Virus record (IMG/VR): IMGVR_UViG_3300009157_000016
Span: 44,378-108,377 of that record
Reading direction: 5' to 3' (one strand)
Origin: a virus
Length of the DNA stretch: 64,000 nucleotides
Below the pieces are notes generated by a model. The model did not search any database. It was not told the origin of the DNA and saw only the letters and a program-made list of their open reading frames with translations. Below, one piece after another: positions 3,234-55,462 of this stretch. The position numbers were made by a program, and so were the translations under genes. How positions within the stretch are numbered: position 1 is the first letter of the stretch; the number at the start of each line of letters is the position of its first letter.

Positions 3234-3453
3234 GACGCACCTTTCCACGTTCTTTTAGTTTCACTTTCCTTCCCAACGACCAGTAGACGACCAAGACCCT
3301 CTTCGATTGTCGCCACTTGACTATGTGGCAGGGAGCGAGGACACGTCTCATCTGCCAGACTTGTTCGAGAAGCTCCTTCAACGTGCAGCCGGGCTCACGG
3401 CGGAACTTCCCTTTTATGGGAATGCGGAAGAGGGTCGGGTCGTCATCCTTCAT
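3085..3453 (-). CDS. hypothetical protein
   Basis: ATGA coupling to the upstream gene, but a long 3' overlap with DUF1643. Confidence 0.4.
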   Translation of the reverse strand: MKDDDPTLFRIPIKGKFRREPGCTLKELLEQVWQMRRVLAPCHIVKWRQSKRVLVVYWSLGRKVKLKERGKVRHDVLRSKARPRRKEAPKDAGRHGRRRLVRRPQSGIPTDTAPLVEQTKAV

Positions 3454-3968
3454 AGGCGCACGCGATCACGCAGCGGCCGGCACTTGAGAAAATCATCCCA
3501 AAAGATGACTTGCAGATTGAGTTGTGGGTAGATGGCTTCAATGCGGAAGATGCCCAGCAAATGGAAGCCCTTCTTGGTGCTGAGGACCAGTATGGGGAAA
3601 TTGTTCTGGCGGGCAATGAGGAACGGTATCTTGTCGAACTTCTCAGCATCCCGGCACAAGGCAAGCCAGAAGTTGACAAGGTTCCCCCTGCGCTTAATCA
3701 GCGCATCAATGTCCAAGTTCTTGAAATGCTTTGAGTCGACGAGGAAGTTGTCGACGAATTTCATGCCGGCTGGATCAATGGCGCTTATGTCACCGGCTTG
3801 CGCAGAGAGGATTGTGCCGGACTTGAAGGCAATGCTGGCCCGGCCTCCTGACATGGCGGTGCGCCAGAATATGTCCTCACGCTTGCCGCGCGTGACCCAT
3901 TTGGATAGCTCACGGCAACAGTAGCGTTCGAACGTAGCGCCCTTTTTCTGACTACCGCCCTTCCTCAT
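3450..3968 (-). CDS. PD-(D/E)XK nuclease, putative Holliday junction resolvase
   Basis: KKGATFER, GDI, LVDSKH pattern; recombination gene context. Confidence 0.7.
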   Translation of the reverse strand: MRKGGSQKKGATFERYCCRELSKWVTRGKREDIFWRTAMSGGRASIAFKSGTILSAQAGDISAIDPAGMKFVDNFLVDSKHFKNLDIDALIKRRGNLVNFWLALCRDAEKFDKIPFLIARQNNFPILVLSTKKGFHLLGIFRIEAIYPQLNLQVIFWDDFLKCRPLRDRVRL

Positions 3969-4302
3969 CTACCCGCTCCCCTTTATCGTTGATAGGCCAC
4001 TTCTCACCGCTGATAAGACGGATAGTGACCATTTCCTGATGACGGTTCATCATGTCGACTTCGTATTCCGCCTTGCCGTTGGCGACCTCAATGGTGAACC
4101 GCATTCCCCTTAGCTTCTCGGGGTCGCTGATGTCCAAGCCGAACTCACGAAGCATTGCGAACGTCGTCGTGGTGGAGTGCATCCACGGAGTGTCTATTGT
4201 GGTGTAGCGCTGGCCGTAGATGGGCTCCACATCTTTGCCGAATGCGGTATCAGGAACCTCGCCGGTGTGCAGCGAGAATTGCATCCTGCGTAGCTCAACC
4301 AT
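3952..4302 (-). CDS. hypothetical protein
   Basis: ORF with AGGAGG-like RBS coupled to the RecA end. Confidence 0.6.
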   Translation of the reverse strand: MVELRRMQFSLHTGEVPDTAFGKDVEPIYGQRYTTIDTPWMHSTTTTFAMLREFGLDISDPEKLRGMRFTIEVANGKAEYEVDMMNRHQEMVTIRLISGEKWPINDKGERVDEEGR

Positions 4303-5347
4303 ACTTCCTCCTCTTGGGTATGAACTCGTCCTCGATCTCATTCCAGAGACGACGGACGACCTTGTTGACGCGACGTGTCTCGCGGTCAAACTCCTTGTCG
4401 CTCATGTCGTTCAGCGCGTCGCGGTACTGAGTGAACTCCTTCTTCTCCGCCGGTATGTCAGCCGCCTTGAGACGCTTGATGGACTTGAGCCAGTCCAGCG
4501 AAGCCCCAAGGTCATCAATCCCGTAGCCAAAGATGAAGTCCATGTCGCACGACCTGAACGGGAAGCCGACCTTGTTCTTCTTGCATAGGGCTTTGATGCC
4601 GATCCCGTAGACGCGCTCAACGCCGCGAATGGTGCGCTTAAGCTGCTCCTTGTGGGACAGCCAGAGGATGTGCGTGGCGTAGAAGTCAAGCGCTTTGCCG
4701 CCAGCGCGGCGGTGCTTCTCCCCAAAGCTGACGTTGATGTTGTCCCGCACCTGTGAGACGATAACAAGGCAGACGCGGGCCTTGCCGATCTTCTTGGTCA
4801 GCTTGCGGAACAATTCAGACGCCATCTTGGCCTTTGCCATGCCGTAGGTGGCGTCACCAATCTCACGCTCCAGTTCCTTCTCGTCGCTGAGGCCGTCATA
4901 GCTGTCCAGCACGTACATGCCGGGCACGTCGTCTTTGATGCAGTCGTCGCAGAAGCGTTCCAAGTCCCGTGCAAACGCTTCAATGGTGGTGATGGGGGCG
5001 TCCGGATCGCCGAAGTCTATGTCGTCAACCGGCGCGCCCATAGCCTGCGCATAGTCCATGTCGTAGGCTTCTTCTGTCTCCCGGTAGGCTGCCTTTCCCT
5101 TCGGGTAGTCCATGCAGAAGTTTGTCAGCCCCTCAGTGGCAAGCGCCGTCTTGGCCGTGCTCTTGTCGCCCACGATGTTGATCATACGTCCTAGGACGTA
5201 GCCGCCGCTGAGAACGTTATCAAGCAGCCCGCAGCCGCTTGACGTGAATTCCAGCTTCTCCTTTTCGGAGGTGAAATAGAGGTTGTCCTCTTTTCTCAGC
5301 TTGTCATAAGCCGTTTCATCCTCAAGCTTTACGCGCCGCTTTGCCAT
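4295..5347 (-). CDS. RecA/UvsX-like recombinase
   Basis: SSGCGLLDNVLSGGY..GRMINIVGDKSTAKT, VLDS, VSQVRDNI, GGKALDFYA, KKNKV..PFR; start MAKRRVKL with GGAGG RBS. Confidence 0.93.
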   Translation of the reverse strand: MAKRRVKLEDETAYDKLRKEDNLYFTSEKEKLEFTSSGCGLLDNVLSGGYVLGRMINIVGDKSTAKTALATEGLTNFCMDYPKGKAAYRETEEAYDMDYAQAMGAPVDDIDFGDPDAPITTIEAFARDLERFCDDCIKDDVPGMYVLDSYDGLSDEKELEREIGDATYGMAKAKMASELFRKLTKKIGKARVCLVIVSQVRDNINVSFGEKHRRAGGKALDFYATHILWLSHKEQLKRTIRGVERVYGIGIKALCKKNKVGFPFRSCDMDFIFGYGIDDLGASLDWLKSIKRLKAADIPAEKKEFTQYRDALNDMSDKEFDRETRRVNKVVRRLWNEIEDEFIPKRRKYG

Positions 5348-5483
5348 CTGGCCTCCAGTTGTAGACACGGCGCTGCTTGGGAAGGGGGTTGACCGCCAGA
5401 TAATCCTGCCAGCCCTCGTATCCCATCGCCCGTATCTGACTTTGATCTCTGTCCAACCTTGCCCAAGGGATTTCGTCATCCAT
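5322..5483 (-). CDS. possible 53-aa hypothetical protein
   Basis: Manual translation MDDEIPWARLD...KAARKA fills the SSB-RecA gap; weak RBS. Confidence 0.3.
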   Translation of the reverse strand: MDDEIPWARLDRDQSQIRAMGYEGWQDYLAVNPLPKQRRVYNWRPDGKAARKA

Positions 5484-5554
5484 CTGCTCTGCAAGAGGGC
5501 GGTTATCTAGCTGGTGGGCGTAGATGACGCCCTCTTGCAGGAGGTAGGCAGCCC

Positions 5555-6235
5555 TTAGTCCCGGTCGCGCCTCCGGCGGTCCCGGTCGTCGTCCGGGTCG
5601 TCATAGCGGGTGCGCTTCTTGTCACCGCGATCGTCGTCACGGTCGCGCTTGCGGTCACGGTCGTCGTCATCATCCCGACCGCCGCGCTTCTCGCCGACGT
5701 CACGTTTGCGGTCGTCGTCCTTGTCCCGGTCCTTGCTGCGCTCACGCATCTCAGCAAGACGGTCCTTCACGTTGCGGCGCTCACCCTTGTCGTCGTCATC
5801 GCGCTTCCGGTCCCGGTCCCGGTCATCGTCATCACGGTCGCGACTGCGGCTGCCACGGTCAACGTCATCCCGGTCACGGCTGCGGCGGTCGTCCTTGTCG
5901 TCGTCACGGTCACGCCCGCGCCGGTCATCACGGTCGTCATCCCGGTCACGGCTGGCACGACGATCATCCCGGTCATCATCACGGTCACGCCGGCCACGAC
6001 GATCGTCGTCGTCTTCGCTCCTCTTCCGTGACGACCCACGGTCATCATCACGATCGTCGTCCCGGCCACGGCCGCGCACCGAACCACGATCATCATCATC
6101 CCGGTCACGCCGGCCACGGCCTGAGCCGCGTTCGTCATCATCCCGGTCACGGCTGCGCCCGCCGCGCCGGTCGTCATCCCGGTCACGGTCACGGCTACGG
6201 CCACCACGACGATCGTCTTTGTCGTCGTCGTCCGT
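5555..6235 (-). repeat. coding low-complexity repeat (RDRDDD-type units)
   Basis: Many imperfect copies of (c)cggtcacgg/tcgtcgtc on the + strand. Confidence 0.9.
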
Positions 6236-7126
6236 TTCAACGCGGACGTGGCCGCCGAAGGCCGCTTCAATGTGGTCGTAGTCGTGGTATTGCAGGACAT
6301 CAGGGATGGGATTTTCCTTGATGTAGTCCAGCACGTCCTGCATGTCACGCTTGTTGTCCAAGATGGGACCGCTGGGGAGGATCTTCATCTTGGACGCCGG
6401 GTACTTGGTATTGCGGCCGGTGCCTTCACGGTAGAAGCGGATGTCGTTCCCGTCGTAAGGGTCATCAATGTAGATGAGCGCCTTGGTGTCCTCGTCAACC
6501 GTCAGGTTGGCGATGTCCTTGTCGAACGTCCACGCCATTGCCCAAAACTGAGCGCCTTCGTCAGGAGCGTTCTTGTCAAGGACCCACACGCCCTTCCGCT
6601 TCTTGGGCGTCAGGGCTTTGGCCAGCTTCTCGTCGCCGTCCTTTTCAGCATCACGGCGGGCCTCATCCAGCGGGTCCCTCTTGCCCAGCATCTTGCTGAG
6701 GCTGAGGTACGTCTGCGAGTCGACGCCAATGCCGTAGTTGCAGTAGATGTCGTAGCAGTAGTACTTCGCATCGTCCCACGTGGGCGGCAGGATGCGGATC
6801 GTGTTCTTGCCTTCCTTTGGCTTGAACACCTTGATCCCATCCTTTACGATGGAGTCGAAGTTCCCTCCGCTTTGGTTGGCGGCTTCCCGCACGGCTTCAC
6901 GCGACGTGCGCTTGTAGACAAAGCTACCACCACGACTGGAGCCGCGATCATCATCACGGTCACGATCACGCGAACGACCACGGTCACGATCCCGGTCATC
7001 GTCGTCCCTCCCACGGCTTGAGCGCCTGTCGTCATCATCCCGGCCACGGCGACGATCGTCGTCCCGGTCACGGTCGCGATCCCGGTCATCATCCCGGTCA
7101 CGGCGTCTATCGTCATCACGTGCCAT
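5555..7126 (-). CDS. gp32-like single-stranded DNA-binding protein with long Arg/Asp-rich N- and C-terminal tails
   Basis: Core FKPKEGKNTIRILPP..DPL..DDPYDGNDIRFYREGTGRNTKY typical of phage gp32-like SSBs; lies between RecA and UvsY-like genes. Confidence 0.8.
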   Translation of the reverse strand: MARDDDRRRDRDDDRDRDRDRDDDRRRGRDDDDRRSSRGRDDDDRDRDRGRSRDRDRDDDRGSSRGGSFVYKRTSREAVREAANQSGGNFDSIVKDGIKVFKPKEGKNTIRILPPTWDDAKYYCYDIYCNYGIGVDSQTYLSLSKMLGKRDPLDEARRDAEKDGDEKLAKALTPKKRKGVWVLDKNAPDEGAQFWAMAWTFDKDIANLTVDEDTKALIYIDDPYDGNDIRFYREGTGRNTKYPASKMKILPSGPILDNKRDMQDVLDYIKENPIPDVLQYHDYDHIEAAFGGHVRVETDDDDKDDRRGGRSRDRDRDDDRRGGRSRDRDDDERGSGRGRRDRDDDDRGSVRGRGRDDDRDDDRGSSRKRSEDDDDRRGRRDRDDDRDDRRASRDRDDDRDDRRGRDRDDDKDDRRSRDRDDVDRGSRSRDRDDDDRDRDRKRDDDDKGERRNVKDRLAEMRERSKDRDKDDDRKRDVGEKRGGRDDDDDRDRKRDRDDDRGDKKRTRYDDPDDDRDRRRRDRD

Positions 7127-7141: not shown

Positions 7142-7312
7142 TCAGGCGCTCTCGGCGCGGGTTTCTTTCTGCCCATGCTGGATAAGGCTCAGGAGTCCCT
7201 GAACGTATGCCAGCTTGGCGCGGTAGTATGCGATGAACACGAAGTTCAAGAAGCAATACAGCAGCGCCAGAACAAGGATCAGGACTGCTACGCCCAGTAC
7301 GTCCTCAGTCAT
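7142..7312 (-). CDS. small membrane protein (56 aa)
   Basis: Manual translation MTEDVLGVAVLILVLALLYCFLNFVFIAYY..; GAGG RBS. Confidence 0.55.
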   Translation of the reverse strand: MTEDVLGVAVLILVLALLYCFLNFVFIAYYRAKLAYVQGLLSLIQHGQKETRAESA

Positions 7313-7805
7313 CGTACCTCACCCTTCGTTTGGAACGGCCTTCAATGATCCGCTCCATGTTGCGCTTGGAACGATACTCGTCAGCCCGGCCGCCTTTGGT
7401 GGCGTCCGTCTGATAGTAGTTCGCTACGTACAGCCCTGCCAGATCCTTGAGCATGTAGGACCGCATTGAGAAGGACTCCTTCAACGTCTGGCACCTGTCC
7501 GCCCATTCCTTGGCGTCAAGGTAGCTCTTGGTGGCCTCAATGTGGTCGTCATGTATCTCAATGGCGTTCTTGATAGCCGCCTCACTGGCCTTGCCGTCCG
7601 ACCGTTCCAGTTCCCTCCTGCACTCAAAGTATAGGCGCGCGTCGATTTGGGACAGTTCCTCTTTGGCTGTGTCCCGGTCAGCGTTTGCCGCTGCCAATAG
7701 ATCGCCGGCTTCATAGAACAATTCTGGTTGCCTGACCAATTCCATGTCTAGGTCAAGGCGGTCAATTTGCAGCGCACGGCGCAGTTCGCTAGGTTTTGCG
7801 GGCAT
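7305..7805 (-). CDS. UvsY-like recombination mediator
   Basis: Helical 166 aa, LQIDRLDLDMELVRQP..SEAAIKNAI..ESFSMRSYML pattern; next to SSB and RecA. Confidence 0.6.
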   Translation of the reverse strand: MPAKPSELRRALQIDRLDLDMELVRQPELFYEAGDLLAAANADRDTAKEELSQIDARLYFECRRELERSDGKASEAAIKNAIEIHDDHIEATKSYLDAKEWADRCQTLKESFSMRSYMLKDLAGLYVANYYQTDATKGGRADEYRSKRNMERIIEGRSKRRVRYDD

Positions 7806-7837: not shown

Positions 7838-8815
7838 CTAGGCCCGGTGGAGTTCCAGAACCAAGCCAATGGAAACGTAGAGGGGAGCGTACTTGGCGGA
7901 ATTGTCATAGGGCGTTGAGAAGCATTCGATGATCCTCAGCAGGCTCGCAGCGCGGCGGTGATCAGTCGTCTTGGCCGCCACCTTCGCCATGTAGTGGCAC
8001 GTAACGATGCGAATGCTTTCAGCGTCCTGATTGGCTTCCTCCATGTCCTTGCAGATGCGCATGGCGTCCTTCCATGTGCCCTTGGGCTTCATGAGGAACT
8101 GGCAGAAGTCATTGATTTCCTTCGTCTCACCGGCCAGCCTTAGCGCCTCACGCGCGTCGGTCACCGTTTCGCAGTACTCAACCTTCTCAAGGTAGGTCAA
8201 AGCCTGCCGTGGTGAGCCGCCGCTGTTCTCAGCAATCAGCTCTAGTATCTCATCCTCCACCTTGAGGTCCGCCTTGTCCATGACCTCGGCAAGGATGAGC
8301 AGAATTTCATCCTCACTGAGCGGCTTGAGATGGTAGTCAATGCACCGCGTCTTGATGGTGGCAGGAACCTTGCCGGGCAGCGTGGTGCAGAAGAACCAGT
8401 ACACGTGCTTGGGCGGTTCCTCCGTGGCCTTGAGAATGCTGTCCCATGCGTTGCTGGACAGCTTGTGGCACTCATCCACGATGATTCCTTTGACCGGACT
8501 GTCGCCAATTGCCCGGTAGTTGGCCTTCTGGACAATGCTGCGCATGGCGTCCACACCGGTATGCGTGGCAGCGTCCACGTCGAGGATGTTCGCCAGCGTG
8601 ATAGTGGCATCGTCGCTCTTGGCCCCAAGCAGGGCAAACTCGTTCGCCACAATGCGGGCAAGCGTCGTCTTGCCAAGGCCGGAGCCGCCCGTGAACAGGA
8701 AGGTGTGGGCACGCCCCTCCTTCACGACCTTGCGCAAGGACTTCACGACGGCGTCGTGTCCAATGACGTCCTTGAATACGTTCGGCCGATAGGCGGTGTG
8801 TAGTGACGTGCTCAT
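7838..8815 (-). CDS. DnaX (gamma/tau)-like clamp loader AAA+ subunit
   Basis: YRPNVFKDVIGH, GGSGLGKTTLAR, DAATHTGVD, IVDECH, EEPP, TIKTRC, GGSPR. Confidence 0.9.
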   Translation of the reverse strand: MSTSLHTAYRPNVFKDVIGHDAVVKSLRKVVKEGRAHTFLFTGGSGLGKTTLARIVANEFALLGAKSDDATITLANILDVDAATHTGVDAMRSIVQKANYRAIGDSPVKGIIVDECHKLSSNAWDSILKATEEPPKHVYWFFCTTLPGKVPATIKTRCIDYHLKPLSEDEILLILAEVMDKADLKVEDEILELIAENSGGSPRQALTYLEKVEYCETVTDAREALRLAGETKEINDFCQFLMKPKGTWKDAMRICKDMEEANQDAESIRIVTCHYMAKVAAKTTDHRRAASLLRIIECFSTPYDNSAKYAPLYVSIGLVLELHRA

Positions 8816-9135
8816 CTTCGTTTATCCTTTCGCTTCCCCTGTTGGCTCATGTGAAATATACCGTTCGCACAGTCAGGGCGCTCCCCATTGCACGGCCTCC
8901 AGTAGATGTGTCCGCACAACGTACACTCAGTTGGCTTGTCACCGGGGAACGCTGGATACATCGTTCGGTGGTCACCGGCTTTGTACTCGGTCATGACCTC
9001 TATGGGTCCGTCGTCCAGCCTCACCCGCTGACGGTGCGGCGGCGGGGCGGGCTCAGGCAGTATCAGGTCATCTTCGTCAAGCCTGACCCGTTTGCGGGGC
9101 ACGACGGGCTCATCTAAACGCACTCGCTTTTTCAT
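8812..9135 (-). CDS. hypothetical protein with 3x RVRLD motif and a Cys4 C-terminal domain
   Basis: KKRVRLDE, RKRVRLDE, RQRVRLDD; CTLC..C..C; GGAGG RBS. Confidence 0.7.
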   Translation of the reverse strand: MKKRVRLDEPVVPRKRVRLDEDDLILPEPAPPPHRQRVRLDDGPIEVMTEYKAGDHRTMYPAFPGDKPTECTLCGHIYWRPCNGERPDCANGIFHMSQQGKRKDKRR

Positions 9136-12045: not shown

Positions 12046-13101
12046 TCAGTCTCCGAAGTTGGACAAGATTTGGAAGAGGTCCGCCCCCTTCCGGTAGACC
12101 GTGAAGCCTTCCAGCACGGCCATCTCTGAGCATACGTCAATGCTGCGCGCCATCAAAGCCGCGTTGACCTTGATCTCGACGTCTGGATGATCCCCTTGAA
12201 GGTTGACCAGATCGCGCACCTCGCCCATGTCGGTGTTCGTGTATAGGCGCATCCGGCCTTCCTTGATGCTGATCTCAGTGGGCTGCGATTTGGGCTCAGC
12301 CACGACACGCGCCCGGCTCAGAGCGTGCTCAAGTCCTTTGGGGACCTTCATCCACGGGATCTCATCCCGCGTGGTCTTTTCGACCCACATGGCGTGGTCC
12401 ACCGGGTCTTCTGGTTTGATGACGCGGCCGTAGACCTTGTAGTCCTTCTCAAGCTCGGCCAACACCCATTCGTCAGAAGCGTGCAGCCGGCCGTTCATGG
12501 ACTTGTCGCTCTTGCAAATGCGCAGGACCGACTCGCAGAAGGAGTTGGGCATGACGAAGCTGTGCGGGTCGTTGTAGTTGGCTCCGTCGATCAGGTAGTG
12601 CGTGAGGCTGTCTGAGTCGCAGGAGTAGAAGCTGATCCCGTCACCGGTATCCAACGTGATGCCCATGAGCGCCTGTTGGCTGCTGTCCTTGCTGGTCGTG
12701 GTGAGGCAAATTTCCATCGCCTCAATCAGGCTGTCATCCAGGTCCAGCACCACGTCCCACGACTCGTCAGACGGTTCTTTGAACAGGAACTCTGACTCTG
12801 GCAAGTAGGGCAGGCGCATCTTGGACCGGCCGGCAATGAACACGACTTCGTGTTGCTGGTCGTCGAACTCAATCTCCACTTCCTCGGTGCGGCAGTTGCG
12901 CAGCAAGCCGAGCATGGTGTCGCCGTGGCAGGCGAAGGGCGCTACGCCGGACGTGCATTTGGCCACGATGCCTAGGTGGTCGTCCGTCGCGTACAGGGTG
13001 TCCCCTGTGAACACGAAGTTCTGGTAGACGGGAACCAAGTCCTGATCGGCCAAGGCGGGCTTGATCAGTTCCAACATCGTGACCAGTGCTTTGCGTCTCA
13101 T
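12046..13101 (-). CDS. DnaN-like (beta) sliding clamp
   Basis: About 350 aa; LYATDD, ALMGITL, YSCDSDSL, ALSRARV, IKVNA pattern of three-domain beta clamps; adjacent to the polymerase and loader. Confidence 0.75.
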   Translation of the reverse strand: MRRKALVTMLELIKPALADQDLVPVYQNFVFTGDTLYATDDHLGIVAKCTSGVAPFACHGDTMLGLLRNCRTEEVEIEFDDQQHEVVFIAGRSKMRLPYLPESEFLFKEPSDESWDVVLDLDDSLIEAMEICLTTTSKDSSQQALMGITLDTGDGISFYSCDSDSLTHYLIDGANYNDPHSFVMPNSFCESVLRICKSDKSMNGRLHASDEWVLAELEKDYKVYGRVIKPEDPVDHAMWVEKTTRDEIPWMKVPKGLEHALSRARVVAEPKSQPTEISIKEGRMRLYTNTDMGEVRDLVNLQGDHPDVEIKVNAALMARSIDVCSEMAVLEGFTVYRKGADLFQILSNFGD

Positions 13102-13541
13102 AGCCTCACCCTTCTTGCTAGTTTCCAACGGCGCTTGGCCGATTGCTGCATCTTTGCGATAGATTCGGATGTGTGCCGCGTACCATACCTTATGTGACCT
13201 ATACCTTTCTGCGTGACGCCGGAGTGACCCTTCTGAGATTTATGTTTGGCGTGACAAGAAGGATAGAGTTGATTCTGACTGTTGGTTCCATCAAGTAAGT
13301 GCGCGGCGTTGCAGCACGGATGAAATTCGCAGTCATGGAGAACCATTCTTGGCCATGCTGGCACGTAACCGTTCTCTAAGAAGAACGCCACGCGATGGGC
13401 AGTGTACTGTATGCTGTGACGAACTGAGAATACTCCATGCCCACTGGTTTGCGTTCCGCCTAACCAAGGCCAGCATTCGTCGGGGCCGCGTCGGTCAACT
13501 TTGGACCAGAAGCGCGCTATGTCTTTAGCGCTGAGGATCAT
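13098..13541 (-). CDS. HNH homing endonuclease
   Basis: RFWSKVD..CWPW.G..AHRVAF..VLHDC..CCNAAHL..GT..QN; NUMOD3-like HTSESIAKM. Confidence 0.88.
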   Translation of the reverse strand: MILSAKDIARFWSKVDRRGPDECWPWLGGTQTSGHGVFSVRHSIQYTAHRVAFFLENGYVPAWPRMVLHDCEFHPCCNAAHLLDGTNSQNQLYPSCHAKHKSQKGHSGVTQKGIGHIRYGTRHTSESIAKMQQSAKRRWKLARRVRL

Positions 13542-16925: not shown

Positions 16926-17498
16926 TCAAGCTGTTAACCACTCACGAAACGCGGCCACCAAGTCAGCGTCGCTATCCAGACCAAGAATGCGCTTGATCCT
17001 TGTGTTGAAGCTGGGGCGTGGAAGCCCACGGTGTCTCCTACTTGGTTTCCTAAGCTCTTGCAAGTGGCGGTCACTGGCGAACACGCTGAGAAGCAAAAGC
17101 ACTTCCGGAGGCGCGTTCGCCAAGACAATAGACACTGACCCTTCGTCGGCAAGATTGCAAGCTAATTCGCTCACATCTTCTACGCCGTCAACGAAGGCGG
17201 ACTTGCGTTCAATGTTCTTGTTTGCTAGGTCAATCAGCTCGTTCAGGAGAGCCGTCTTGTAGAGCGCCATGAAATGGGGCGCGTGCATGACGCGCGGATA
17301 CTTGACTGTGCAGCGCTCGAATACAATGTAGGCGTCTTGCAGGAGGTCGTCCATGCCACATAGGACTGGATCATAGCGCCATAGGTTTTCACGTAAGAAC
17401 TTGATCGTGTAGGCTTTTATCACCCCGTCCCATTCAGGATACCATTCAAGACGGACACGACTGGACAACTTTTCAAGCCGCACACGGCGCTTCGGCAT
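16926..17498 (-). CDS. sigma-70 region-2-like phage transcription factor
   Basis: MDDLLQDAYIVF..KY..FMALYKTALLNELIDL; start MPKRRVRL with GGAGAGG RBS. Confidence 0.6.
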   Translation of the reverse strand: MPKRRVRLEKLSSRVRLEWYPEWDGVIKAYTIKFLRENLWRYDPVLCGMDDLLQDAYIVFERCTVKYPRVMHAPHFMALYKTALLNELIDLANKNIERKSAFVDGVEDVSELACNLADEGSVSIVLANAPPEVLLLLSVFASDRHLQELRKPSRRHRGLPRPSFNTRIKRILGLDSDADLVAAFREWLTA

Positions 17499-22286: not shown

Positions 22287-22561
22287 GCTCGCGCACCGGT
22301 AGCTGCCACCTTGCCTTTCTCAGTTATACAGTAGGTGATGGTGATCCCACTGGAATTAGGACTGAATTTGCGAATCCAGTCGTGAGCGCGAAGCCCGTCA
22401 ATCACGACGACGCTGCACCCCACGGCCGGTATGCCAGCCTTTGTCTTGCCAATCTTGAGAGTCTTGTGGCCGCTGGAGAGAAGCCCTTTGCCGCCCTGCT
22501 CTACCAGCCATGCCAGAACCTTACGCTGTACCTCAGTCGGACGAGTCCCCATAGTCGTCAT
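22283..22561 (-). CDS. hypothetical wHTH-like protein
   Basis: PTEVQRKVL..YCITEKGK. Confidence 0.55.
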   Translation of the reverse strand: MTTMGTRPTEVQRKVLAWLVEQGGKGLLSSGHKTLKIGKTKAGIPAVGCSVVVIDGLRAHDWIRKFSPNSSGITITYCITEKGKVAATGARA

Positions 22562-24763: not shown

Positions 24764-25090
24764 TTACAGTCTAACGCGCTTCTTGCCACCGCCTTTGTCG
24801 AGGCTCTCCCTCAACTTCCTCATCGGATCACGTTCGCGCGCTTTTTCTGAGCGACTCATACCTTCGAATTCCCTCAGTTTAACTTTCCCTTTCCTGTAGG
24901 CGTCAAGTAAAGCCTCCTCGAGATCCTCACCTTGACCGTGAAAGTAGTCCCAAACGGAATGAGTGTGAACGAGAACGACGTCAAAGTACCAGTGTCTCCT
25001 TCCCTCCTTTCCGATGGGGTGGCGCTGATAGCATTGATGCAACATGAAGCCGGCATCGTTGGCCCGCTCAAGGACGTCTTCTACTGACAT
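24764..25090 (-). CDS. hypothetical protein ending in KKRVRL
   Basis: 108-aa ORF with GAGGAG RBS. Confidence 0.7.
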   Translation of the reverse strand: MSVEDVLERANDAGFMLHQCYQRHPIGKEGRRHWYFDVVLVHTHSVWDYFHGQGEDLEEALLDAYRKGKVKLREFEGMSRSEKARERDPMRKLRESLDKGGGKKRVRL

Positions 25091-26123: not shown

Positions 26124-26134
26124 GAGGAAGGTTC

Positions 26135-34692: not shown

Positions 34693-34715
34693 CCGTAGTG
34701 TGGCGCGAAGCTGTC

Positions 34716-43151: not shown

Positions 43152-43379
43152 TCAACGTCGTTTTCCTTTCCCGCCCGATCTAATCTCCCAGCCACGAAGC
43201 CTGCGGGCTATTTCGGTTTCGTGACCGGCTTTCAGTTGCGCGAGCTGCTTGCGGCAGCTCTCAACCGACGCCAGAGCCGCCTTGAGGTTCTTGGCGTTCA
43301 GAGACAGGTCCAGCAGGCTGAACGTCGTCTCCGTGATCTGGTGATGCTGCTCTAGGTAATCCTGGTAGTTGAATTCCAC
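43152..43379 (-). CDS. small coiled-coil hypothetical protein
   Basis: GTG start with AGGAGG RBS. Confidence 0.5.
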   Translation of the reverse strand: MEFNYQDYLEQHHQITETTFSLLDLSLNAKNLKAALASVESCRKQLAQLKAGHETEIARRLRGWEIRSGGKGKRR

Positions 43380-44044: not shown

Positions 44045-44461
44045 CTACTCCTTTTGTCTACCAGACAGGACGGCGACCAGATGGATCAGGGCCTTCTGGC
44101 ACGGCCTTGAGCAGGCGTTGAAGTCTGCCACAAGCCTTCCCACGACGGTCGCCGTGTTCAGCATGTCGTCGACCTCAGCGCTAGGTGCCGTCCCTCTATA
44201 CTGCGGAGGCACCAAGTCGTTGATGGACACTTCCAGCGCATGGGCCATCGTAACCATGCGGGAGAAGCTGAGCCGGTTGGTTCCCTTCTCATACTTCTGG
44301 ATCTGCTGGAAGGTGATGCCGCACTTGTCGCCGAGCTGTTCTTGGCTGAGCTCGCGCATCTTGCGCAGTTGCCGAATGCGGCTGCCCATCACGATGTCCT
44401 CCTGGCGAGGCTCTTTGACGGACGTCGTTCCCTCAATGGCACGTTCCTTTGACTTGACCAT
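44045..44461 (-). CDS. XRE-family HTH transcriptional regulator
   Basis: GSRIRQLRKMRELSQEQLG..GITFQQIQKYEKGTNRLS. Confidence 0.9.
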   Translation of the reverse strand: MVKSKERAIEGTTSVKEPRQEDIVMGSRIRQLRKMRELSQEQLGDKCGITFQQIQKYEKGTNRLSFSRMVTMAHALEVSINDLVPPQYRGTAPSAEVDDMLNTATVVGRLVADFNACSRPCQKALIHLVAVLSGRQKE

Positions 44462-44514
44462 GTTCTCACTCCTACACGAACGGTATAGACCTGCGTAACC
44501 CTCACGCCGTTCAC

Positions 44515-44997
44515 ATGAGGCAGGATGCGATGTCAGAGTTTGTCAAGCTAGTTGTCGACGGTTCATGCATACGTCAACAGGACTGCGGAGGCTGGGCCTA
44601 CCGCTTCGAATGGCATGACCGTGTATTCAAGGACAGTGGCGGTGAGTTCCCCGCTACAAACAACACAATGGAATTGGAGGCTGCGCGCCAAGGATTGATA
44701 GCTGTCAAGCGCCACACAAGGCGTGACATCCATCTCCTTGTCATCAGCGACAGCCGCTACGTCACACGTGGTGCTTCGGAATGGCTTCCCCTCTGGCGTG
44801 AGCGTAGGTGGATCACACAAGAGGGCAAGCCAGTCTCAAATCGCTCCCAATGGGAGGAAATAGACCGGCTTGCTACGTGGTTTGATCGAGTTGTATGGAA
44901 GTGGGTGAAAGGACATCAAGGCCACGAACTCAATGAGATCGTGGACGAGATGGCGCGGGACGCTGCGCGGCTTATGCAGCGTCAGCGTCCCGTTTAG
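44515..44997 (+). CDS. rnhA: ribonuclease HI
   Basis: VDGSC, GGW, TNNTMELEA, SDSRYV, WKWVKGHQGHELNEIVD. Confidence 0.92.
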   Translation: MRQDAMSEFVKLVVDGSCIRQQDCGGWAYRFEWHDRVFKDSGGEFPATNNTMELEAARQGLIAVKRHTRRDIHLLVISDSRYVTRGASEWLPLWRERRWITQEGKPVSNRSQWEEIDRLATWFDRVVWKWVKGHQGHELNEIVDEMARDAARLMQRQRPV

Positions 44998-45262
44998 CGG
45001 ACCTCACTCTCCAGAGGTCCAGTCCCGGTGTCTTGTAGCCGTTCCTTGCGGCCCACCTGAGCACCGCCTTTTCCTGAAAGCGGATCAGGTCACGCGGGTT
45101 AGGTCCCTCGCTTCGCGGGTTGTTGGGAATGCGGATCTCAAGTTCGCTGAGACCCTTCTGACGCCAGCGGAATAGAGCCTGACGGCTGACCTGAAAAATC
45201 TCCAGCAGGTCCTCCATCGTGATCAGCTCTTCGATGGCGCTCTCCAGATCTTCTTGACGCAT
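44972..45262 (-). CDS. MerR/excisionase-like HTH DNA-binding protein
   Basis: LITMEDLLEIFQVSRQALFRWRQKGL..IRF..VLRW; AGGAG RBS. Confidence 0.7.
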   Translation of the reverse strand: MRQEDLESAIEELITMEDLLEIFQVSRQALFRWRQKGLSELEIRIPNNPRSEGPNPRDLIRFQEKAVLRWAARNGYKTPGLDLWRVRSAKRDADAA

Positions 45263-45365
45263 GTCTACTCTCCTGTCGAATTTACCTGTCCAATACAGGG
45301 TTTGAGTTTCGTTTCCGACCGTGTATATCTGTCCCTCCGATGTGCTTTTCTTATCGGGTGTCCAC

Positions 45366-46052
45366 ATGCAGGGTAAAAATAAACGACGGGTTCGGCTAGA
45401 CGACGAGCCGCGACCGAAGCGCGTGCGGGACATGGAGCCCGCCAACCGCGCCCGTGACCGGGCTTATCGAGATGCACCGCGCGACACGGAAGGTCGCATG
45501 ATTCCCGGCTTTAGATACAAGCAACTCGTCGATGCATACGAGTCCGCCGGGCTGGAGCCGCATGTTCAGCGGGTAGACGACGTCAGCTTGACGAAGCGCC
45601 CCATGTTCATCTCAAACCCTGAGAAGGGTAAGAGGCTGATCAAGCTGCTCCGCAAGGGGTTGCCTTACACCACGTGCTGTCGGTTGATCGGGATCAGTCG
45701 CTCCACATTCATTGAGTGGATGGTGAAGGGCCGTGAAGGGCATCCCCATTACGTTGACTTCTACGAGAAGATCTGCAAGGCGGAAGGCCAAGCAGAACTC
45801 AGCAGGCTCAAGGAGCTGCGGCAGGATGGTAAGGGCGACTGGAAGTCGTCTGCTTGGCAGCTCGAGCGCCGTTGGCCTGAGCATTGGGGACGCCGCGACG
45901 CAGTGCGTGCGGAAGTTGTCGCCAACGTAGAAATCAGCGTAAAGGGGAAAGAAAAGCTGGCGCAGCAGGTCGCCACCGACGAAGTGTCGCGCGAGCTTGC
46001 GCGCCGCATGATTGACGGAACGGAATACGGCTACGAGGACCTCAGCAAATGA
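45366..46052 (+). CDS. terminase small subunit
   Basis: HTH LRKGLPYTTCCRLIGISRSTFIEW and DWKSSAWQLERRWPEHW; directly upstream of TerL. Confidence 0.75.
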   Translation: MQGKNKRRVRLDDEPRPKRVRDMEPANRARDRAYRDAPRDTEGRMIPGFRYKQLVDAYESAGLEPHVQRVDDVSLTKRPMFISNPEKGKRLIKLLRKGLPYTTCCRLIGISRSTFIEWMVKGREGHPHYVDFYEKICKAEGQAELSRLKELRQDGKGDWKSSAWQLERRWPEHWGRRDAVRAEVVANVEISVKGKEKLAQQVATDEVSRELARRMIDGTEYGYEDLSK

Positions 46053-47665
46053 CCGGTCTGATTGAGAGCACTGGCCGGTTCCGCGTACGATTGGACGCTG
46101 AGGACCTGGAAGAGATTGAGGCCCGCCCCAAGCGCCGCGTGCGCTTGGGGACAGACGTAGCAGAGCTGTCGCAGGCGGCGTATGCCAAGCCGCTTGTCGA
46201 CACTGCCGGGAAGCCGCTGATAGTTCCCAACAGGGACTTGATGGGCAGGATCACACCGGAGGAACTGGCGTACGCGCTGCCCGGCGGTCTTGCCAAGCTG
46301 GCCTACCCCAAGTGGATGTATGCCCCCTACATCCGCTACGTTGAGAACCGCATCCTGCCCATCATTCAGGGCAACAAGTCCATCTACCTGATGTTCTCAG
46401 CGCCGCCTCGGCACGGCAAGACACAATTCATTTCCAAGGTGCTGCCGGCTTGGTATCTTGGGCGCAACCCTGACAAGCGTGTCCTGCTCGTCACCTACAA
46501 CACTGAGTTCTCCAAGCAGCAAGGTCGCGCTGCCCGGAACATCTTTGAGCAGTTCGGTCCCACGGTCTTCAACTTGAAGGTCGCGATGGACAGTTCGTCC
46601 GCTTCCCATTGGGACATTGAAGGACACCAAGGCGGTATGGAAGCCGTAGGTGCCGAAGGTTCCATCATGGGTAAGGGCGCGGACCTTCTGATCATTGACG
46701 ATCCGCTCAAGGGCTTTGAGGCTGCGATGAGCGAGACCATCCTACAGCGTGTGTGGGAATGGTTCCTGACCGACGTTTACTCCCGTCTGGAGCCCGGCGC
46801 TTCGGTCATCATTGTCATGACGCGCTGGACGCTTCTTGACTTGATTGGTCGCATTGAAGCGCGGCGCATTGAGACGCAGGAGGAGGTTGACGCCGGCGAG
46901 GAAGAGATTGTCGCGTTCGACGAGTTTGAGCGCATCAACTTCCCTGCCTTGGCGACCGACGACAACGACGTGCTTGGCCGCCTCACCGGTCAGGCGTTGT
47001 TCCCGCAGCGGTACCCCGCAGAGCGCTTGCTCAAGATCAGGCGCAACATGGACACGTACTGGTGGGAGGCCCTGTATCAGGGGAACCCCGTGCCGCTCAG
47101 CGGCACGATGATCGATATCAAGTGGCTGACCGGCACCGGCCGCCAGTACGTGGAGGAGATGGTCCGCAATCAGTTCGAGATGATCGTCATCTCAACTGAC
47201 ACGGCCAACAAGGACACCGAGCTGGCCGACTTCAGTGTGTTCGGCGTGTGGGGTATCCGTGAGGACCGTTACTACCTTTTGGACCTCATCCGTGATAAGA
47301 TGGAGTTCCCTGAGCTACTAGGCACCGCGAAGGCGTTGCTGGAGCAATGGGATCCGACCTTCTTCCTCATTGAGGACAAGGGCTCAGGAACCAACCTGAT
47401 CCAAATGCTCCGCAACGAGGGTGTGGACTGCGTGCGGCCCATAGACCCCGGTAGCGAGAGCAAGATCATCAGGATGAGCTCTGAGACCCCCGCGATGAGA
47501 GTTGGCAAGGTGAAGACTCCGAAGGACGCCTCATGGCTCGAGCCCTACCTGCTTGAGGCAAGAAGCTTCCCCCGTGGCAAAAAGGACCAAATGGACATGA
47601 CCTCGCAGTTCCTACGCTTCATGCGTGAGAACTCAAGCGGGATCAAAATGTGGACATTCCAATGA
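46049..47665 (+). CDS. terminase large subunit
   Basis: APPRHGKT, LIIDDP, VMTRW, ALYQGNP, STDTA..DFS, LIEDKGSG, KDQMD. Confidence 0.95.
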   Translation: MTGLIESTGRFRVRLDAEDLEEIEARPKRRVRLGTDVAELSQAAYAKPLVDTAGKPLIVPNRDLMGRITPEELAYALPGGLAKLAYPKWMYAPYIRYVENRILPIIQGNKSIYLMFSAPPRHGKTQFISKVLPAWYLGRNPDKRVLLVTYNTEFSKQQGRAARNIFEQFGPTVFNLKVAMDSSSASHWDIEGHQGGMEAVGAEGSIMGKGADLLIIDDPLKGFEAAMSETILQRVWEWFLTDVYSRLEPGASVIIVMTRWTLLDLIGRIEARRIETQEEVDAGEEEIVAFDEFERINFPALATDDNDVLGRLTGQALFPQRYPAERLLKIRRNMDTYWWEALYQGNPVPLSGTMIDIKWLTGTGRQYVEEMVRNQFEMIVISTDTANKDTELADFSVFGVWGIREDRYYLLDLIRDKMEFPELLGTAKALLEQWDPTFFLIEDKGSGTNLIQMLRNEGVDCVRPIDPGSESKIIRMSSETPAMRVGKVKTPKDASWLEPYLLEARSFPRGKKDQMDMTSQFLRFMRENSSGIKMWTFQ

Positions 47666-49708: not shown

Positions 49709-50050
49709 CTACAGCCTGACGCGCTCACGTCGCGGCCTGTCGGCCTTGTCTGGCGGCGTGCGGTCAGCCTCAAAAGCCTGCCCCGCCTGCCGCTTACGAA
49801 GCATTGCTGTGATCTGCCGTTCCTGGTCGGCGAGGGCCTGCTTCATCAAGTAGAACTTCGCCGCCTCCAGCGCAGACCGAGCGAGGCCGTTAAGACCCCG
49901 CACATACTCGCCGTACATGTCGGGACCTACATCCTCCACGTAGTTGCCTTCCTGGAAGCGCGTAAGGTCATGCAGCTCGGCCATGAGGTCCTCGCACTTG
50001 ACAAGGAGCTCCTTCTGAGACTGTAGCGGAACGATTGACAGCCTCGGCAT
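49709..50050 (-). CDS. hypothetical protein ending in RERVRL
   Basis: TGATG-coupled ORF. Confidence 0.65.
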   Translation of the reverse strand: MPRLSIVPLQSQKELLVKCEDLMAELHDLTRFQEGNYVEDVGPDMYGEYVRGLNGLARSALEAAKFYLMKQALADQERQITAMLRKRQAGQAFEADRTPPDKADRPRRERVRL

Positions 50051-54446: not shown

Positions 54447-54851
54447 CTAGAGTTTCACCCTCCTTTTCCTGCTGTGGTTTTCTAGTCTAACACGCTTTTT
54501 AGAAGCGGGTTGCGGTTCCTCTGGTCGCTCACGCGCAGCAATTTTCTTGTTCCACGGCTTCTTGATGAAGTCGGGAACGTCCTTTGCGTCAGAGGATTCG
54601 AAACGCACTCTATGTTTCGGAGGGACCTTCCAGTCCACGTCCACGCCTAAATCCTGTAGCAGGCGGCGCATGGCGCGGTAGTCACGCAGCATTGCCGCGA
54701 AGGTGTCCCGGTTGAAACCGAACACGTCCTTGCGGATGAGCACGTTCCCTTTGTTGATGTCGTGCTTCTGCGCCTCATGGAAGGCGACCAGATCTTCCGC
54801 GTTCGTCAGATCGTCTTTCATCAGGCTCAGTTGAAGCTCTTCCCTGCTCAT
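54447..54851 (-). CDS. hypothetical protein with three RV[RK][LF] motifs
   Basis: KHRVRFE, KKRVRLE, KRRVKL-stop; AGGAG RBS. Confidence 0.7.
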   Translation of the reverse strand: MSREELQLSLMKDDLTNAEDLVAFHEAQKHDINKGNVLIRKDVFGFNRDTFAAMLRDYRAMRRLLQDLGVDVDWKVPPKHRVRFESSDAKDVPDFIKKPWNKKIAARERPEEPQPASKKRVRLENHSRKRRVKL

Positions 54852-54873
54852 GCGATAGCTCCTTTAGCGAATG

Positions 54874-54908
54874 AAAAGACCGCGCCGGGGGCTTATCCCG
54901 GCACGGTC
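54874..54908 (-). terminator. probable intrinsic terminator
   Basis: Minus strand gaccgtgccggg..cccggcgcggtc followed by TTTT. Confidence 0.55.
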
Positions 54909-54951
54909 CCTAGGGAGGAAACGGCACCGGTTGCGATGACCGGTGCGCCCC

Positions 54952-55206
54952 TCAGAATGAACCATCAGCCCACGCTTGTCTACCCGCTTTCAAGGCATCC
55001 GCGTGTTCGCCGTATGGCCCTACCTCGGAACCGTATGGCACTCCCGGTCCCCGCATCACTGACCAGTAGAATCCGTTCTTGGGATCGCCGTCGTCATCCA
55101 GCGCAAACTTGCCGTTTGCGTCAGGCCCCCACTCTGTGACTTCTAGGTAGGGTTCGCCGTCAAAGGCGAACCCGCCGCTTGTTTCGTCTGACTTCTTTTT
55201 GGTCAT
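54952..55206 (-). CDS. hypothetical protein
   Basis: GFYW..GPY..AL pattern; GAGG RBS. Confidence 0.6.
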   Translation of the reverse strand: MTKKKSDETSGGFAFDGEPYLEVTEWGPDANGKFALDDDGDPKNGFYWSVMRGPGVPYGSEVGPYGEHADALKAGRQAWADGSF

Positions 55207-55462
55207 TGAACCCTCGCTTTGGTGGAACGACACCCTCGACGAAGGTGTCATGGACTCCCTTCACTGCATAGATAAGATATGGTCGGTTGTTCTCCTTCGC
55301 TAGTTGCGTTGCAAGGATGATTGCTTGCTCACGGTCATCCTTCTCATGACGCTCGTATCCCTTACCGGGACCCAAGTAGCGGACCACTGTGAAGTAGTCC
55401 GCTTCGTCAATGATACTGTTCTCGCGTGCTTCACGAGCTTCTTGATTGGCTTTGGACGCCAA
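55160..55462 (-). CDS. hypothetical protein ending in KRRVRL
   Basis: TTG start with AGGAGG RBS; RPYLIYAV motif. Confidence 0.65.
   Translation of the reverse strand: MASKANQEAREARENSIIDEADYFTVVRYLGPGKGYERHEKDDREQAIILATQLAKENNRPYLIYAVKGVHDTFVEGVVPPKRGFNDQKEVRRNKRRVRL

Follow-up and report, generated by a model that had tools for sequence, protein, structure and literature searches.

The window analysed here is a 64,000-nucleotide stretch of a 108,377-bp phage genome (G000; 154 called proteins, 31,316 aa). It contains 18 copies of a short basic peptide, RV[RK][LFY], on 12 proteins, together with a degenerate PKRVRD in the small terminase TerS (Table 1). All copies listed in an earlier sequence-only reading of this DNA are present in the genes to which they had been assigned. 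Carriers involved in recombination are the RecA/UvsX-like recombinase, the UvsY-like mediator, the PDDEXK/RusA-like nuclease, HNH endonucleases and, weakly, the SSB; the SSB copy is a variant that does not count among the 19 strict copies of the genome. Packaging carriers are TerS and the large terminase TerL. A DNA methyltransferase, a GcrA-like protein, a small protein coupled to the clamp loader and several other small proteins also carry the tag; the polymerase, primase, helicases and clamp loader do not. Outside the window numbering, a head-module protein (genome positions 21496-22278) carries RRVRLGD and has KTRTRL at its end.

Table 1. Tagged genes in the window, with tag positions and strand
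Gene	Tag	Tag position	Strand	Basis or remark
PDDEXK/RusA-like nuclease (3450-3968)	C-terminal end RDRVRL	3453..3464	-	Pfam PF24608, phrog_244
RecA/UvsX-like recombinase (4295-5347)	N-terminal MAKRRVKLED	5324..5335	-	Pfam RecA, phrog_97
gp32-like SSB (5555-7126)	degenerate KKRTRYDD near C-terminus	5603..5614	-	PSSM scan and sequence
UvsY-like mediator (7305-7805)	C-terminal end KRRVRYDD	7314..7325	-	AGG GTG AGG is also the next gene's Shine-Dalgarno
107-aa Cys-rich protein (8812-9135)	N-terminal KKRVRLDE, RKRVRLDE, RQRVRLDD	9016..9126	-	
HNH endonuclease (13098-13541)	C-terminal end ARRVRL	13101..13112	-	Pfam HNH_3, phrog_1872/3593
190-aa protein (16926-17498)	N-terminal MPKRRVRLEK, SSRVRLEW	17448..17486	-	
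108-aa protein (24764-25090)	C-terminal end KKRVRL	24767..24778	-	no family match
TerS (45321 or 45366 to 46052)	N-terminal KRRVRLDD, then degenerate PKRVRD	45387..45398	+	
TerL (46049-47665)	N-terminal RFRVRLDA, KRRVRLGT	46082..46147	+	
113-aa protein (49709-50050)	C-terminal end RERVRL	49712..49723	-	no PHROG
134-aa protein (54447-54851)	KHRVRFE, KKRVRLE and terminal KRRVKL in C-terminal third	54450..54611	-	no PHROG
100-aa protein (55160-55462)	C-terminal end KRRVRL	55163..55174	-	no PHROG

The tag is far more frequent than composition predicts. In its coding frames the whole genome has 19 RV[RK]L, whereas 2000 per-protein shuffles give 1.48 +/- 1.2 (maximum 7); for [KR]RV[RK]L they give 0.20 (12 observed), and 0.23 for RV[RK]L with D/E or the C-terminus directly after it (16 observed). 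The terminal ~35 residues hold 17 of the 19 copies (0.4 expected), and the expectation rises only to 0.6 (z about 22) when the shuffle is kept inside the 35 end residues. In the other five frames of the same gene spans there are 1, 1, 3, 1 and 0 copies. Codon usage is broad: the first R is written with five different Arg codons and the R/K position with eight codons, and each of the four Val and six Leu codons occurs. Therefore, what is under selection is the peptide and not a DNA repeat, as had been proposed from the sequence.

The tags lie in proline-flanked segments of low AF2 confidence, outside domains. They are terminal and sit outside the catalytic folds of unrelated recombination, regulatory and packaging proteins, in agreement with the sequence-only reading. 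In TerS, the phrog_4102 domain begins at residue 78. For the AF2 model of the UvsY-like protein (pLDDT 84), the top Foldseek matches are T4 UvsY, which bears out the protein's earlier name; the tag of this protein is in a low-confidence tail. Profiles likewise give TerS, TerL, RecA/UvsX-like, HNH and PDDEXK/RusA-like nuclease for the genes that had been labelled TerS, TerL, RecA, HNH and resolvase. The 190-aa protein, whose residues 1-20 have pLDDT below 50, has no family or fold match; its earlier description as sigma-like is unsupported. Gene 8812-9135 is translationally coupled to the clamp loader, and the tag of the HNH endonuclease overlaps the Shine-Dalgarno and start of the clamp gene.

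TerL provides the largest set of homologues. Of 39 homologues that have the N-terminal extension (48-77% identity), 34 carry one to three tags; in total, 1,807 aa of extension hold 54 tags, and 18,679 aa of protein body hold none. The extensions are otherwise unconserved. R[VI]R precedes 30% of all Leu in them, V/I and L dominate among their basic-x-basic-x words, the flanks are prolines, and D/E are rare (3.6% and 4.3%). More distant TerLs have neither extension nor tag. An acid or the C-terminus had been proposed to follow the final Leu, with the terminal carboxylate substituting for the acid. The rule describes G000 well (16 of 19 copies) but not the TerL homologues, where D/E directly follows only 16 of 54 tags and the carboxylate idea fails with it.

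A second complete genome, the 102-kb relative G001, has nine tags against 1.4 expected. RecA, TerS, TerL, the nuclease and the 190-aa protein are tagged there at the ends where G000 has the tag. Its RecA starts MAKRRIKL, its nuclease ends KRNRVKL, its orthologue of the 190-aa protein starts MPRTRVRL and its TerS has RKRRIRLED; the TerS of L006 has GRKRVRLG. The four closest homologues of the nuclease end R[IVT]RL, while 14 more distant ones do not. The tag is thus kept across orthologues while the flanks drift. The 107-aa protein beside the clamp loader shares a CxxC...PCNGERxDCAN core with its G001 orthologue; the G000 protein bears its three tags at the N-terminus, the G001 protein a single KRKRVRL at the C-terminus. 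As judged from sequence, this pair shows that the tag can switch protein ends between orthologues. The consensus is P-[KR]-[KR/Q/P]-R-[VI]-[RK]-L, in one to three copies within disordered extensions at either protein end.

In three other related genomes (G006, G007 and G011), RV[RK]L is at background level and the tag is absent. These relatives encode orthologues of the clamp, clamp loader, SSB core and RecA, and their RecA begins MAKRERPKI or MSKRERAKL. The orthologues of the 100-aa protein in G001, G006 and G007 are also untagged. G011 shares both the head and replication modules, yet is untagged. Since three related genomes lack it, the origin of the tag lies within the lineage, and the tag is not accounted for by any conserved module; among the clamp, clamp loader, SSB, RecA and head module, no protein predicts the tag when the tag-negative relatives are considered. 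For TerL, the nuclease and whole genomes alike, close relatives have the tag and more distant relatives do not, a pattern that the sequence-only reading had left to be checked.

These data are best explained, at somewhat better than an even chance, by a portable short linear docking motif for a single receptor, through which recombination, regulation and packaging would be coupled. A subclade of uncultivated tailed phages of ~100 kb, found in sediment and soil, has placed this motif on many of its proteins. A single folded reader would bind the extended peptide, with the two R on one face and V/I and L on the other. Tandem copies would give avidity, so that tagged proteins concentrate at a single site, at which phage DNA would undergo recombination, regulation and the cutting that packaging requires. 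So sharply defined a motif might also have a role in encapsidation or DNA binding.

Clamp-interacting peptides are a close parallel. PIP boxes on PCNA, QL[SD]LF-type peptides on the bacterial beta-clamp, and the gp43, gp55 and gp33 tails on T4 gp45 are all short peptides at the extreme ends of many unrelated DNA-transaction proteins that meet at one hub, and G000 encodes its own beta-type clamp and clamp loader. However, clamp peptides read Q-L-x-L-F while the tag is the strongly basic R-V-R-L; the phage polymerase is untagged, as are three relatives with an orthologous clamp, and neither RecA nor the terminase subunits are clamp clients in the classical sense. Of the sequence-only reading, the shared, modular terminal tag is supported; the hub that it proposed was not found, and the presence of a clamp, clamp loader or SSB core does not predict the tag.

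Two other likenesses were considered. An RVxF-like motif is rejected because the last residue is L instead of F/W and no PPP phosphatase sets the tag-bearing genomes apart. The nuclear localisation signal of c-Myc is PAAKRVKLD, and its K-R-V-K-L-D matches [KR]-R-V-[RK]-L-[DE] in order and almost residue for residue; both label DNA-handling proteins. This resemblance, seen in the sequence-only reading, is real at the level of sequence. However, an SD-like sequence precedes 136 of the 154 genes and 39 same-strand gene pairs overlap, which on sequence criteria is the organisation of a phage with a bacterial host, so an importin would not be expected to read the tag. Nucleus-forming jumbo phages reportedly rely on surface patches and not on a linear signal (PMC11087766).

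Two of the other explanations are unlikely but survive best. In the first, the tag would mimic the conserved peptide at the C-terminus of the protease-scaffold protein that the phage encodes, and so attach proteins to the procapsid. Recombination proteins, regulators, the methylase and small proteins that may act against defences would enter the capsid and be injected together with the DNA, and terminase would be recruited to the prohead. Short end-peptides load cargo in encapsulins and through the HK97 protease C-terminus; for the latter, PMC12749128 cites Duda et al. 2013. The T4 internal-protein capsid targeting sequence is another short end-peptide shared by unrelated proteins, and such peptides load proteins into T4 heads (PMC9026906). 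In the protease-scaffold family, 58 of 109 long representatives end K-x-[RK]-G-[RK]-[LV]-D-COOH, which has K, R, R, L and D in common with K-[KR]-R-V-R-L-D. The copy in G001 ends NKMRGRLD and that in G000 KKARGALD. The tagged head-module protein and the G001 portal, which starts MAKRHRTRL, also fit. However, position +1 never overlaps: the 58 scaffold ends all have G there and the 54 tags all have V/I; only the G is informative, as V/I is fixed by the search pattern. G011 has no tags, although it shares this head module and its scaffold ends SGKLD. In contrast to capsid-targeted cargo, the carriers, known here from their genes, are mostly encoded in the replication block and not the head block, and the best-conserved carrier, terminase, works outside the shell.

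Equally doubtful is an electrostatic 'sticker', by which tagged clients would partition into a condensate or brush formed by very long, charged tails on the SSB and on the 15967-16908 protein. According to PMC7584906, E. coli SSB phase-separates and gathers partners. SSB tails throughout the lineage consist of K-P-R-R-x-R...D/E units resembling the tag and its acidic stretch; residues in 40-aa windows of at least 60% D/E/K/R number 649 in G000 and 606 in G001 against 0, 163 and 216 in tag-negative relatives, a comparison of two genomes with three. Among known systems, the acidic tails of E. coli SSB (SSB-Ct), T4 gp32 and T7 gp2.5 are recombination and repair hubs that combine charge with a hydrophobic residue. 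Their polarity is reversed, however: here the clients carry a basic peptide and the SSB has only a degenerate copy. G001 tags mostly have no acids after them. The sharp definition of the motif, with dominant V/I and L, proline flanks and D/E-poor TerL extensions, suggests a folded groove and not diffuse charge.

It is less likely again that the tag is a small DNA-binding hook which raises DNA affinity. AT-hooks occur in tandem, at either end and in disordered regions, as the tag does, and where a function could be assigned, almost every carrier works on DNA. The DNA that is bound may be modified; only the tag-bearing genomes have a ThyX-like enzyme and a dCTP deaminase. The tag does not match the AT-hook core R-G-R-P, the invariant V/I and L are not needed by a groove-binding basic arm, and the D/E-rich sequence that usually follows the tag in G000 should oppose DNA binding.

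There is little probability that a host protease or unfoldase reads the tag as a degron or chaperone mark and so keeps down the amount or lifetime of nucleases and regulators. ClpX reads basic-hydrophobic C-termini such as RRKKAI of MuA, several carriers are nucleases that could be toxic, and the tag co-varies with tail-tip genes and so, likely, with host. However, the same peptide is found at N-termini, at C-termini, internally and in tandem, unlike end-specific degrons, and large amounts of TerL, TerS and RecA are required late in infection.

An origin of the tag by chance, from composition or as the by-product of some DNA element, for example a Shine-Dalgarno or repeat, is refuted: the proteome is rich in basic ends and, as the sequence-only reading cautioned, the AGG/GTG codons of three C-terminal copies (genes 7305, 13098 and the last of 54447) double as the next gene's Shine-Dalgarno, but their peptide is that of about 16 copies with no such role, and the enrichment (19 against 1.5, or 17 against 0.6 locally), the 0-3 copies in other frames, the full codon diversity and the conservation among homologues with divergent DNA all oppose it.

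Within the docking explanation, about half of the probability falls on a reader that is a host protein or one of the few phage proteins confined to tag-bearing genomes, a list that comes from two complete genomes and may reflect a single evolutionary event; the remainder falls on the phage clamp, SSB core or portal with changed specificity. In T4, terminase, SSB, recombination and transcription factors are physically linked late in infection: gp17 binds gp20, gp32 and gp55, and gp55 binds gp45 and gp33 (PMC9026906). Those contacts are pairwise and use different surfaces, whereas here one common peptide is found on all partners. If the docking explanation is true, the tag would be a hard-wired version of the T4 coupling between TerL, SSB, late sigma factor and clamp.

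A short peptide of the form K-R-R-V-R-L, with the core R-[VI]-[RK]-L, recurs at the ends of unrelated proteins in the complete phage genome to which the window belongs (G000). Every copy of this tag listed by the sequence-only reading was found at its gene. In the whole G000 proteome RV[RK]L occurs 19 times, compared with 1.48 +/- 1.2 in 2000 per-protein shuffles (maximum 7). Twelve copies are preceded by a basic residue (0.20 expected), 16 are followed by D/E or the C-terminus (0.23 expected) and 17 of the 19 lie within about 35 residues of a protein end (0.4 expected). When shuffling is confined to the terminal 35 residues the count is still 17 versus 0.6; explaining the enrichment therefore takes more than basic ends. 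The other five frames across the same genes hold 1, 1, 3, 1 and 0 copies. The composition-shuffle, terminal-enrichment and other-frame checks proposed in that reading thus show the enrichment to be real, terminal and specific to the coding frame.

Tag copies use all four valine codons, all six leucine codons and, for the first arginine, five arginine codons. This diversity rules out a DNA repeat and bears out the earlier claim that selection acts on the peptide. A caveat had been raised that three C-terminal copies overlap the Shine-Dalgarno (SD) sequence of the next gene. The overlaps are confirmed, with the AGG and GTG codons doubling as the ribosome-binding site, but here the codons serve two purposes, and the overlap does not account for how the peptide arose. 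The shuffles, the other frames and the codon diversity together exclude chance, an SD sequence or a DNA repeat as the source of the tag.

The IMG/VR record of G000 (108,377 bp) is rated 100% complete; the window covers its bases 44,378-108,377. Its 154 genes, called across the whole genome with a codon-usage model plus a few manual additions, are those of a tailed phage according to profile searches. Packaging and head genes comprise TerS, TerL, portal, protease-scaffold, major capsid protein (MCP) and tail genes. Replication is represented by a family A polymerase (PolA) fused to a uracil-DNA-glycosylase (UDG)-family domain, a beta-type clamp, a clamp loader, a primase, and DnaB-like and SNF2 helicases; recombination by a RecA/UvsX-like recombinase, a gp32-like SSB, an Mre11/Rad50-like pair, a PDDEXK/RusA-like nuclease and HNH endonucleases. 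DNA methyltransferases are also encoded. The UDG-superfamily domain is N-terminal to the exonuclease and polymerase domains, and the fusion is kept in every relative examined. The DnaB-like helicase has an acidic tail with one tyrosine (GERDDDYGDSSD in G000, DGDDDDYDEDDE in G001, the second complete tag-bearing genome), reminiscent of the acidic tails at the C-termini of T7 gp4 and gp2.5.

An SD-like sequence precedes 136 of the 154 genes, compared with 22% of random sites, and 39 same-strand neighbour pairs overlap by a few bases; both features indicate that the host is a bacterium. A scan of 185,579 species genomes found TerL relatives only at up to 45% identity, in Proteobacteria, and no host could be assigned. 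The G000 sequence is found in freshwater-sediment metagenome runs (shares 0.70 and 0.47), the best of which may be the source sample, and in one soil run (share 0.27); this run-level assignment leaves out two runs with small shares. A search for close cultured relatives found none. The best cultured matches of PolA and the clamp are in Vibrio MAR10-like phages (33% and 26% identity), the identity of TerL to cultured phages does not exceed 37%, and the protease-scaffold protein matches them in its protease domain alone.

Coordinates of the features discussed (window, counted from the start of the stretch; genome, counted from the start of the whole record)
Feature	G000 coordinates	Strand	Other genome	Assignment
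gp32-like SSB	window 5555-7126	-	G001 44327-45574	
SSB C-terminal element	window ~5640-5700	-	G001, G006, G007 orthologues	
Small Cys-rich protein	window 8812-9135			
UDG-polymerase fusion	window 9172-11889	-		Pfam UDG, E 3e-18
313-aa protein	window 15967-16908	-	G001 33922-35109	
190-aa protein	window 16926-17498			
DnaB-like helicase	window 22533-23930	-	G001 25306-26757	
ThyX-like enzyme	window 32349-33326	-		phrog_85
Clade-restricted protein	window 43261-44043			
MoxR-like AAA+ ATPase	window 59585-60877	-		
VWA/DUF2201 protein	window 61707-62723	-		metallopeptidase-like
Acidic early protein	genome 1391-1882			
Clade-restricted protein	genome 14485-14799			
Prohead protease-scaffold fusion	genome 16678-18531	+		representatives P0141-P0290
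dCTP deaminase	genome 42829-43560	-		phrog_1663
TerL match with in-frame TAG			G014:C1:1373-2761	

All tag carriers of assigned role act on DNA outside the core replisome; they take part in recombination, in cutting at junctions or ends, in methylation, in regulation or in packaging. The tag is absent from the ends of PolA, primase, DnaB, SNF2 helicase and clamp loader in both G000 and G001, and the clamp is also untagged. Among the carriers, the label 'UvsY-like' is upheld by an AF2 model (pLDDT 84) whose best Foldseek matches are all T4 UvsY. The 190-aa protein had been called sigma-like; neither Pfam nor PDB sequences support this label, PHROGs give only an unknown family, and a Foldseek search with a low-confidence model (pLDDT 63) does not support it either.

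The prediction that homologues in related phages would carry the tag and distant ones would lack it holds for TerL, the nuclease and the genome of G001. A homologue search of 5.8 billion proteins yielded a TerL clade at 48-77% identity; the IMG/VR scan for relatives used a TerL alignment, as a single-protein TerL query gave no matches. Among the clade TerLs, 39 retain the conserved core entry motif. Each of these has an extension 25 or more residues long at its N-terminus, which in 34 of them contains one to three copies of R-[VI]-[RK]-L. The extensions total 1,807 residues and contain 54 copies; the 18,679 body residues contain none. Outside the tag the extension is unconserved, and 30% of its leucines directly follow R-V-R or R-I-R. 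TerLs beyond the clade have neither extension nor tag. The clade consensus is P-[KR]-[KR/Q/P]-R-[VI]-R-L-x-x-P. It had been claimed that the final leucine is generally followed by D/E or by the terminal carboxylate; this rule fails in the TerL homologues, where an acidic residue is next in only 16 of the 54 tags.

Several TerL homologues from the tagged clade and its neighbours (P0021, P0025, P0028, P0036 and P0044) are 700-840 aa long; judging from their length and the homing-endonuclease/intein Pfam domains found in some, the long forms likely contain inteins. In G014, a more distant relative (64-kb IMG/VR record, GC 39%), the TerL match has one in-frame TAG, which may reflect stop-codon recoding, an error in sequencing or a gene that is split.

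The four closest nuclease homologues (49-60% identity) terminate in R-[IVT]-R-L, while 14 more distant ones do not. G001 (102,569 bp with terminal repeats) has a TerL 61% identical to that of G000 and is also enriched in the tag, with nine copies versus 1.4 expected. RecA, TerS, TerL, the nuclease and the 190-aa protein are tagged at the same ends in both genomes. The clamp-loader-coupled Cys-rich protein has three N-terminal tags in G000 and a single C-terminal tag in its G001 orthologue. In two carriers modelled with AF2, the tags fall in low-confidence ends.

Three relatives do not have the tag. G006 (96 kb, complete) and G007 (78 kb) have the replication/recombination block in common with G000 (clamp 38-43% and RecA 53-55% identity) and a different head module; each has two motif copies, none in a basic terminal context. 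The looser motifs [KR][KR]x[KR][LI] and R[AVIP][KRQ][LI] are not enriched in G006 or G007 either; a looser version of the tag is therefore not the simple answer there. G011 (106 kb, complete) shares both the replication and head blocks (MCP 66%, TerL 44%, protease 46%, RecA 45%, SSB 44%) and has one tag copy versus 2.5 expected. Since all three are at background, the tag arose within the lineage, and clamp, SSB or head type does not predict it.

Only a few gene products are shared solely by the two tag-bearing genomes: the tail-tip proteins (which likely determine host range), a dCTP deaminase, a ThyX-like enzyme, a GcrA-like protein, the small Cys-rich protein, a 104-aa protein, the acidic early protein (62% identity) and the product of window 43261-44043, a member of a function-unknown family that is widespread in phages. 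With only two positive genomes, this gene set may be the product of one evolutionary event. The set points weakly to a receptor, or reader, of the tag that comes from the host or from a phage gene restricted to this clade. The MoxR-like ATPase and the VWA/DUF2201 protein form a conserved pair kept in all relatives, tagged or untagged; the pair was dropped as a candidate reader because it occurs in the tag-negative genomes too. The ThyX-like enzyme and dCTP deaminase, together with the UDG-polymerase fusion, hint at modified thymidine/uracil metabolism in phage DNA.

The sharp core, the disordered Pro-flanked setting, placement at both kinds of terminus, occurrence in tandem, and gain or loss among orthologues lead us to favour, by a modest degree, a docking or address motif that serves as a common handle. 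Cells are well known to use short linear motifs for docking to hubs, with PIP boxes, clamp-binding motifs and SSB tails as examples. The tag would gather recombination, cutting, methylation, regulation and packaging proteins on one reader, located where phage DNA undergoes processing and packaging.

Tagged proteins might instead partition by charge. Hyper-charged disordered residues number 649 in G000 and 606 in G001 versus 0-216 in the tag-negative relatives, so that such sequence is about threefold or more higher in the tag-bearing genomes (two versus three genomes), and the SSB tails of the lineage are made of tag-like basic-then-acidic units. However, the motif is too sharp for a purely electrostatic effect and the TerL extensions are too acid-poor.

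The SSB and the 313-aa protein, which is highly codon-adapted and has an N-terminal domain and a conserved core of about 110 aa, contain hundreds of mixed-charge residues: Arg/Asp in G000, and poly-Asp/Glu with Lys blocks in G001. These tails are far shorter or missing in the tag-negative relatives. The SSB C-termini of G000, G001, G006 and G007 all contain S-I/V-[RK]-[DE]-R-[LI] followed by basic residues; this element may be the SSB family's own partner-binding peptide.

The tag could also be an encapsidation signal, as it shares with capsid-targeting and cargo-loading peptides (T4 CTS, encapsulin CLP, HK97 protease tail) the form of a short terminal peptide on unrelated proteins of one virus. 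The prohead protease-scaffold family has a conserved extreme C-terminus, K-x-[RK]-G-[RK]-[LV]-D-COOH, in 58 of 109 long representatives; this is probably the shell-binding element of the family. It resembles K-[KR]-R-V-R-L-D at five of seven positions, and tag variants occur on a head-module protein and on the G001 portal. However, position +1 is G in all 58 scaffold ends, where the tag pattern demands V/I. In addition, G011 has the head module yet lacks the tags, and terminase acts outside the shell.

A DNA hook is opposed by the acidic residues that usually follow the tag in G000; the tag core, R-[VI]-R-L, is also not the R-G-R-P of an AT-hook. A degron (ssrA-like, ClpX C-motif 2 or N-degron) is opposed by use of the tag at both ends, internally and in tandem; unlike a degron needing one free terminus, the tag swaps ends between orthologues.

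Other known motif classes fit poorly. The tag consensus has neither the Gln nor the Phe of the bacterial beta-clamp-binding motif (QL[SD]LF / QxxLxF), with which it shares only hydrophobic alternation at i and i+2, and the replicative polymerase and other clamp clients of G000 and G001 are untagged. A complex prediction of the clamp dimer with residues 1-50 of the triple-tagged Cys-rich protein, run without controls, scored 0.01 against a mark of 0.32; this carries no weight either way on clamp binding. The suggested likeness to the RVxF motif of PP1 does not hold, as 19 of 22 copies have L, and not F/W, in the final place; docking to a PPP phosphatase is opposed by this ending and by the sole metallophosphoesterase of G000, which is Mre11-like and is also present in the tag-negative relatives. 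A Tat signal would require a hydrophobic region after the tag, which is missing, and C-terminal copies exist; the spacing is wrong for a cyclin RxL motif. A cleavage site for the prohead protease was considered as well and set aside.

The c-Myc nuclear localisation signal (NLS) has the sequence PAAKRVKLD. The tag, [KR]-R-V-[RK]-L, matches its monopartite core K-R-V-K-L residue for residue and fits the class pattern of a basic K-[KR]-x-[KR] core with alternating hydrophobic residues after it, so the suggested NLS likeness stands at the level of sequence. Action through importin-alpha in a eukaryotic host does not, given the bacterial SD sites, gene overlaps and tailed-phage content; since the host is bacterial, only convergence can account for the likeness. 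A linear import signal is reported to be absent from nucleus-forming jumbo phages (PMC11087766). It is improbable, on our assessment, that the tag is a true address signal, the bacterial-virus counterpart of an NLS, taking proteins for recombination, regulation and packaging into a DNA compartment or condensate that the phage makes and that the hyper-charged SSB and the 313-aa protein family organise, with untagged replisome parts carried by tagged partners such as the clamp-loader-coupled small protein.

For the docking motif, the nearest functional precedent is the T4 coupling of gp17, gp32, gp55 and the clamp. The T4 TerL, gp17, binds portal, gp32 and the late sigma factor gp55, which in turn binds the clamp and gp33; these gp17 and gp55 contacts tie packaging to late transcription and replication (PMC9026906). 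In the literature searched, we found no single peptide shared across terminase, RecA, UvsY, nucleases, methylase and regulators of one phage lineage; nothing relevant emerged there on an RVRL peptide, or on an NLS or short linear motifs, in phages.

Its small size, its function at either end of a protein and its evolution by straightforward grafting make the tag a candidate tool for sending proteins to a phage-specific site. The tagged and untagged relatives offer a comparison ready-made by nature, and the sharpness of the motif suits it as bait in a direct hunt for the reader. If one reader exists, recombination, regulation and genome packaging would be physically coupled in these phages; if real, it would offer a single point for studying or blocking their late programme.
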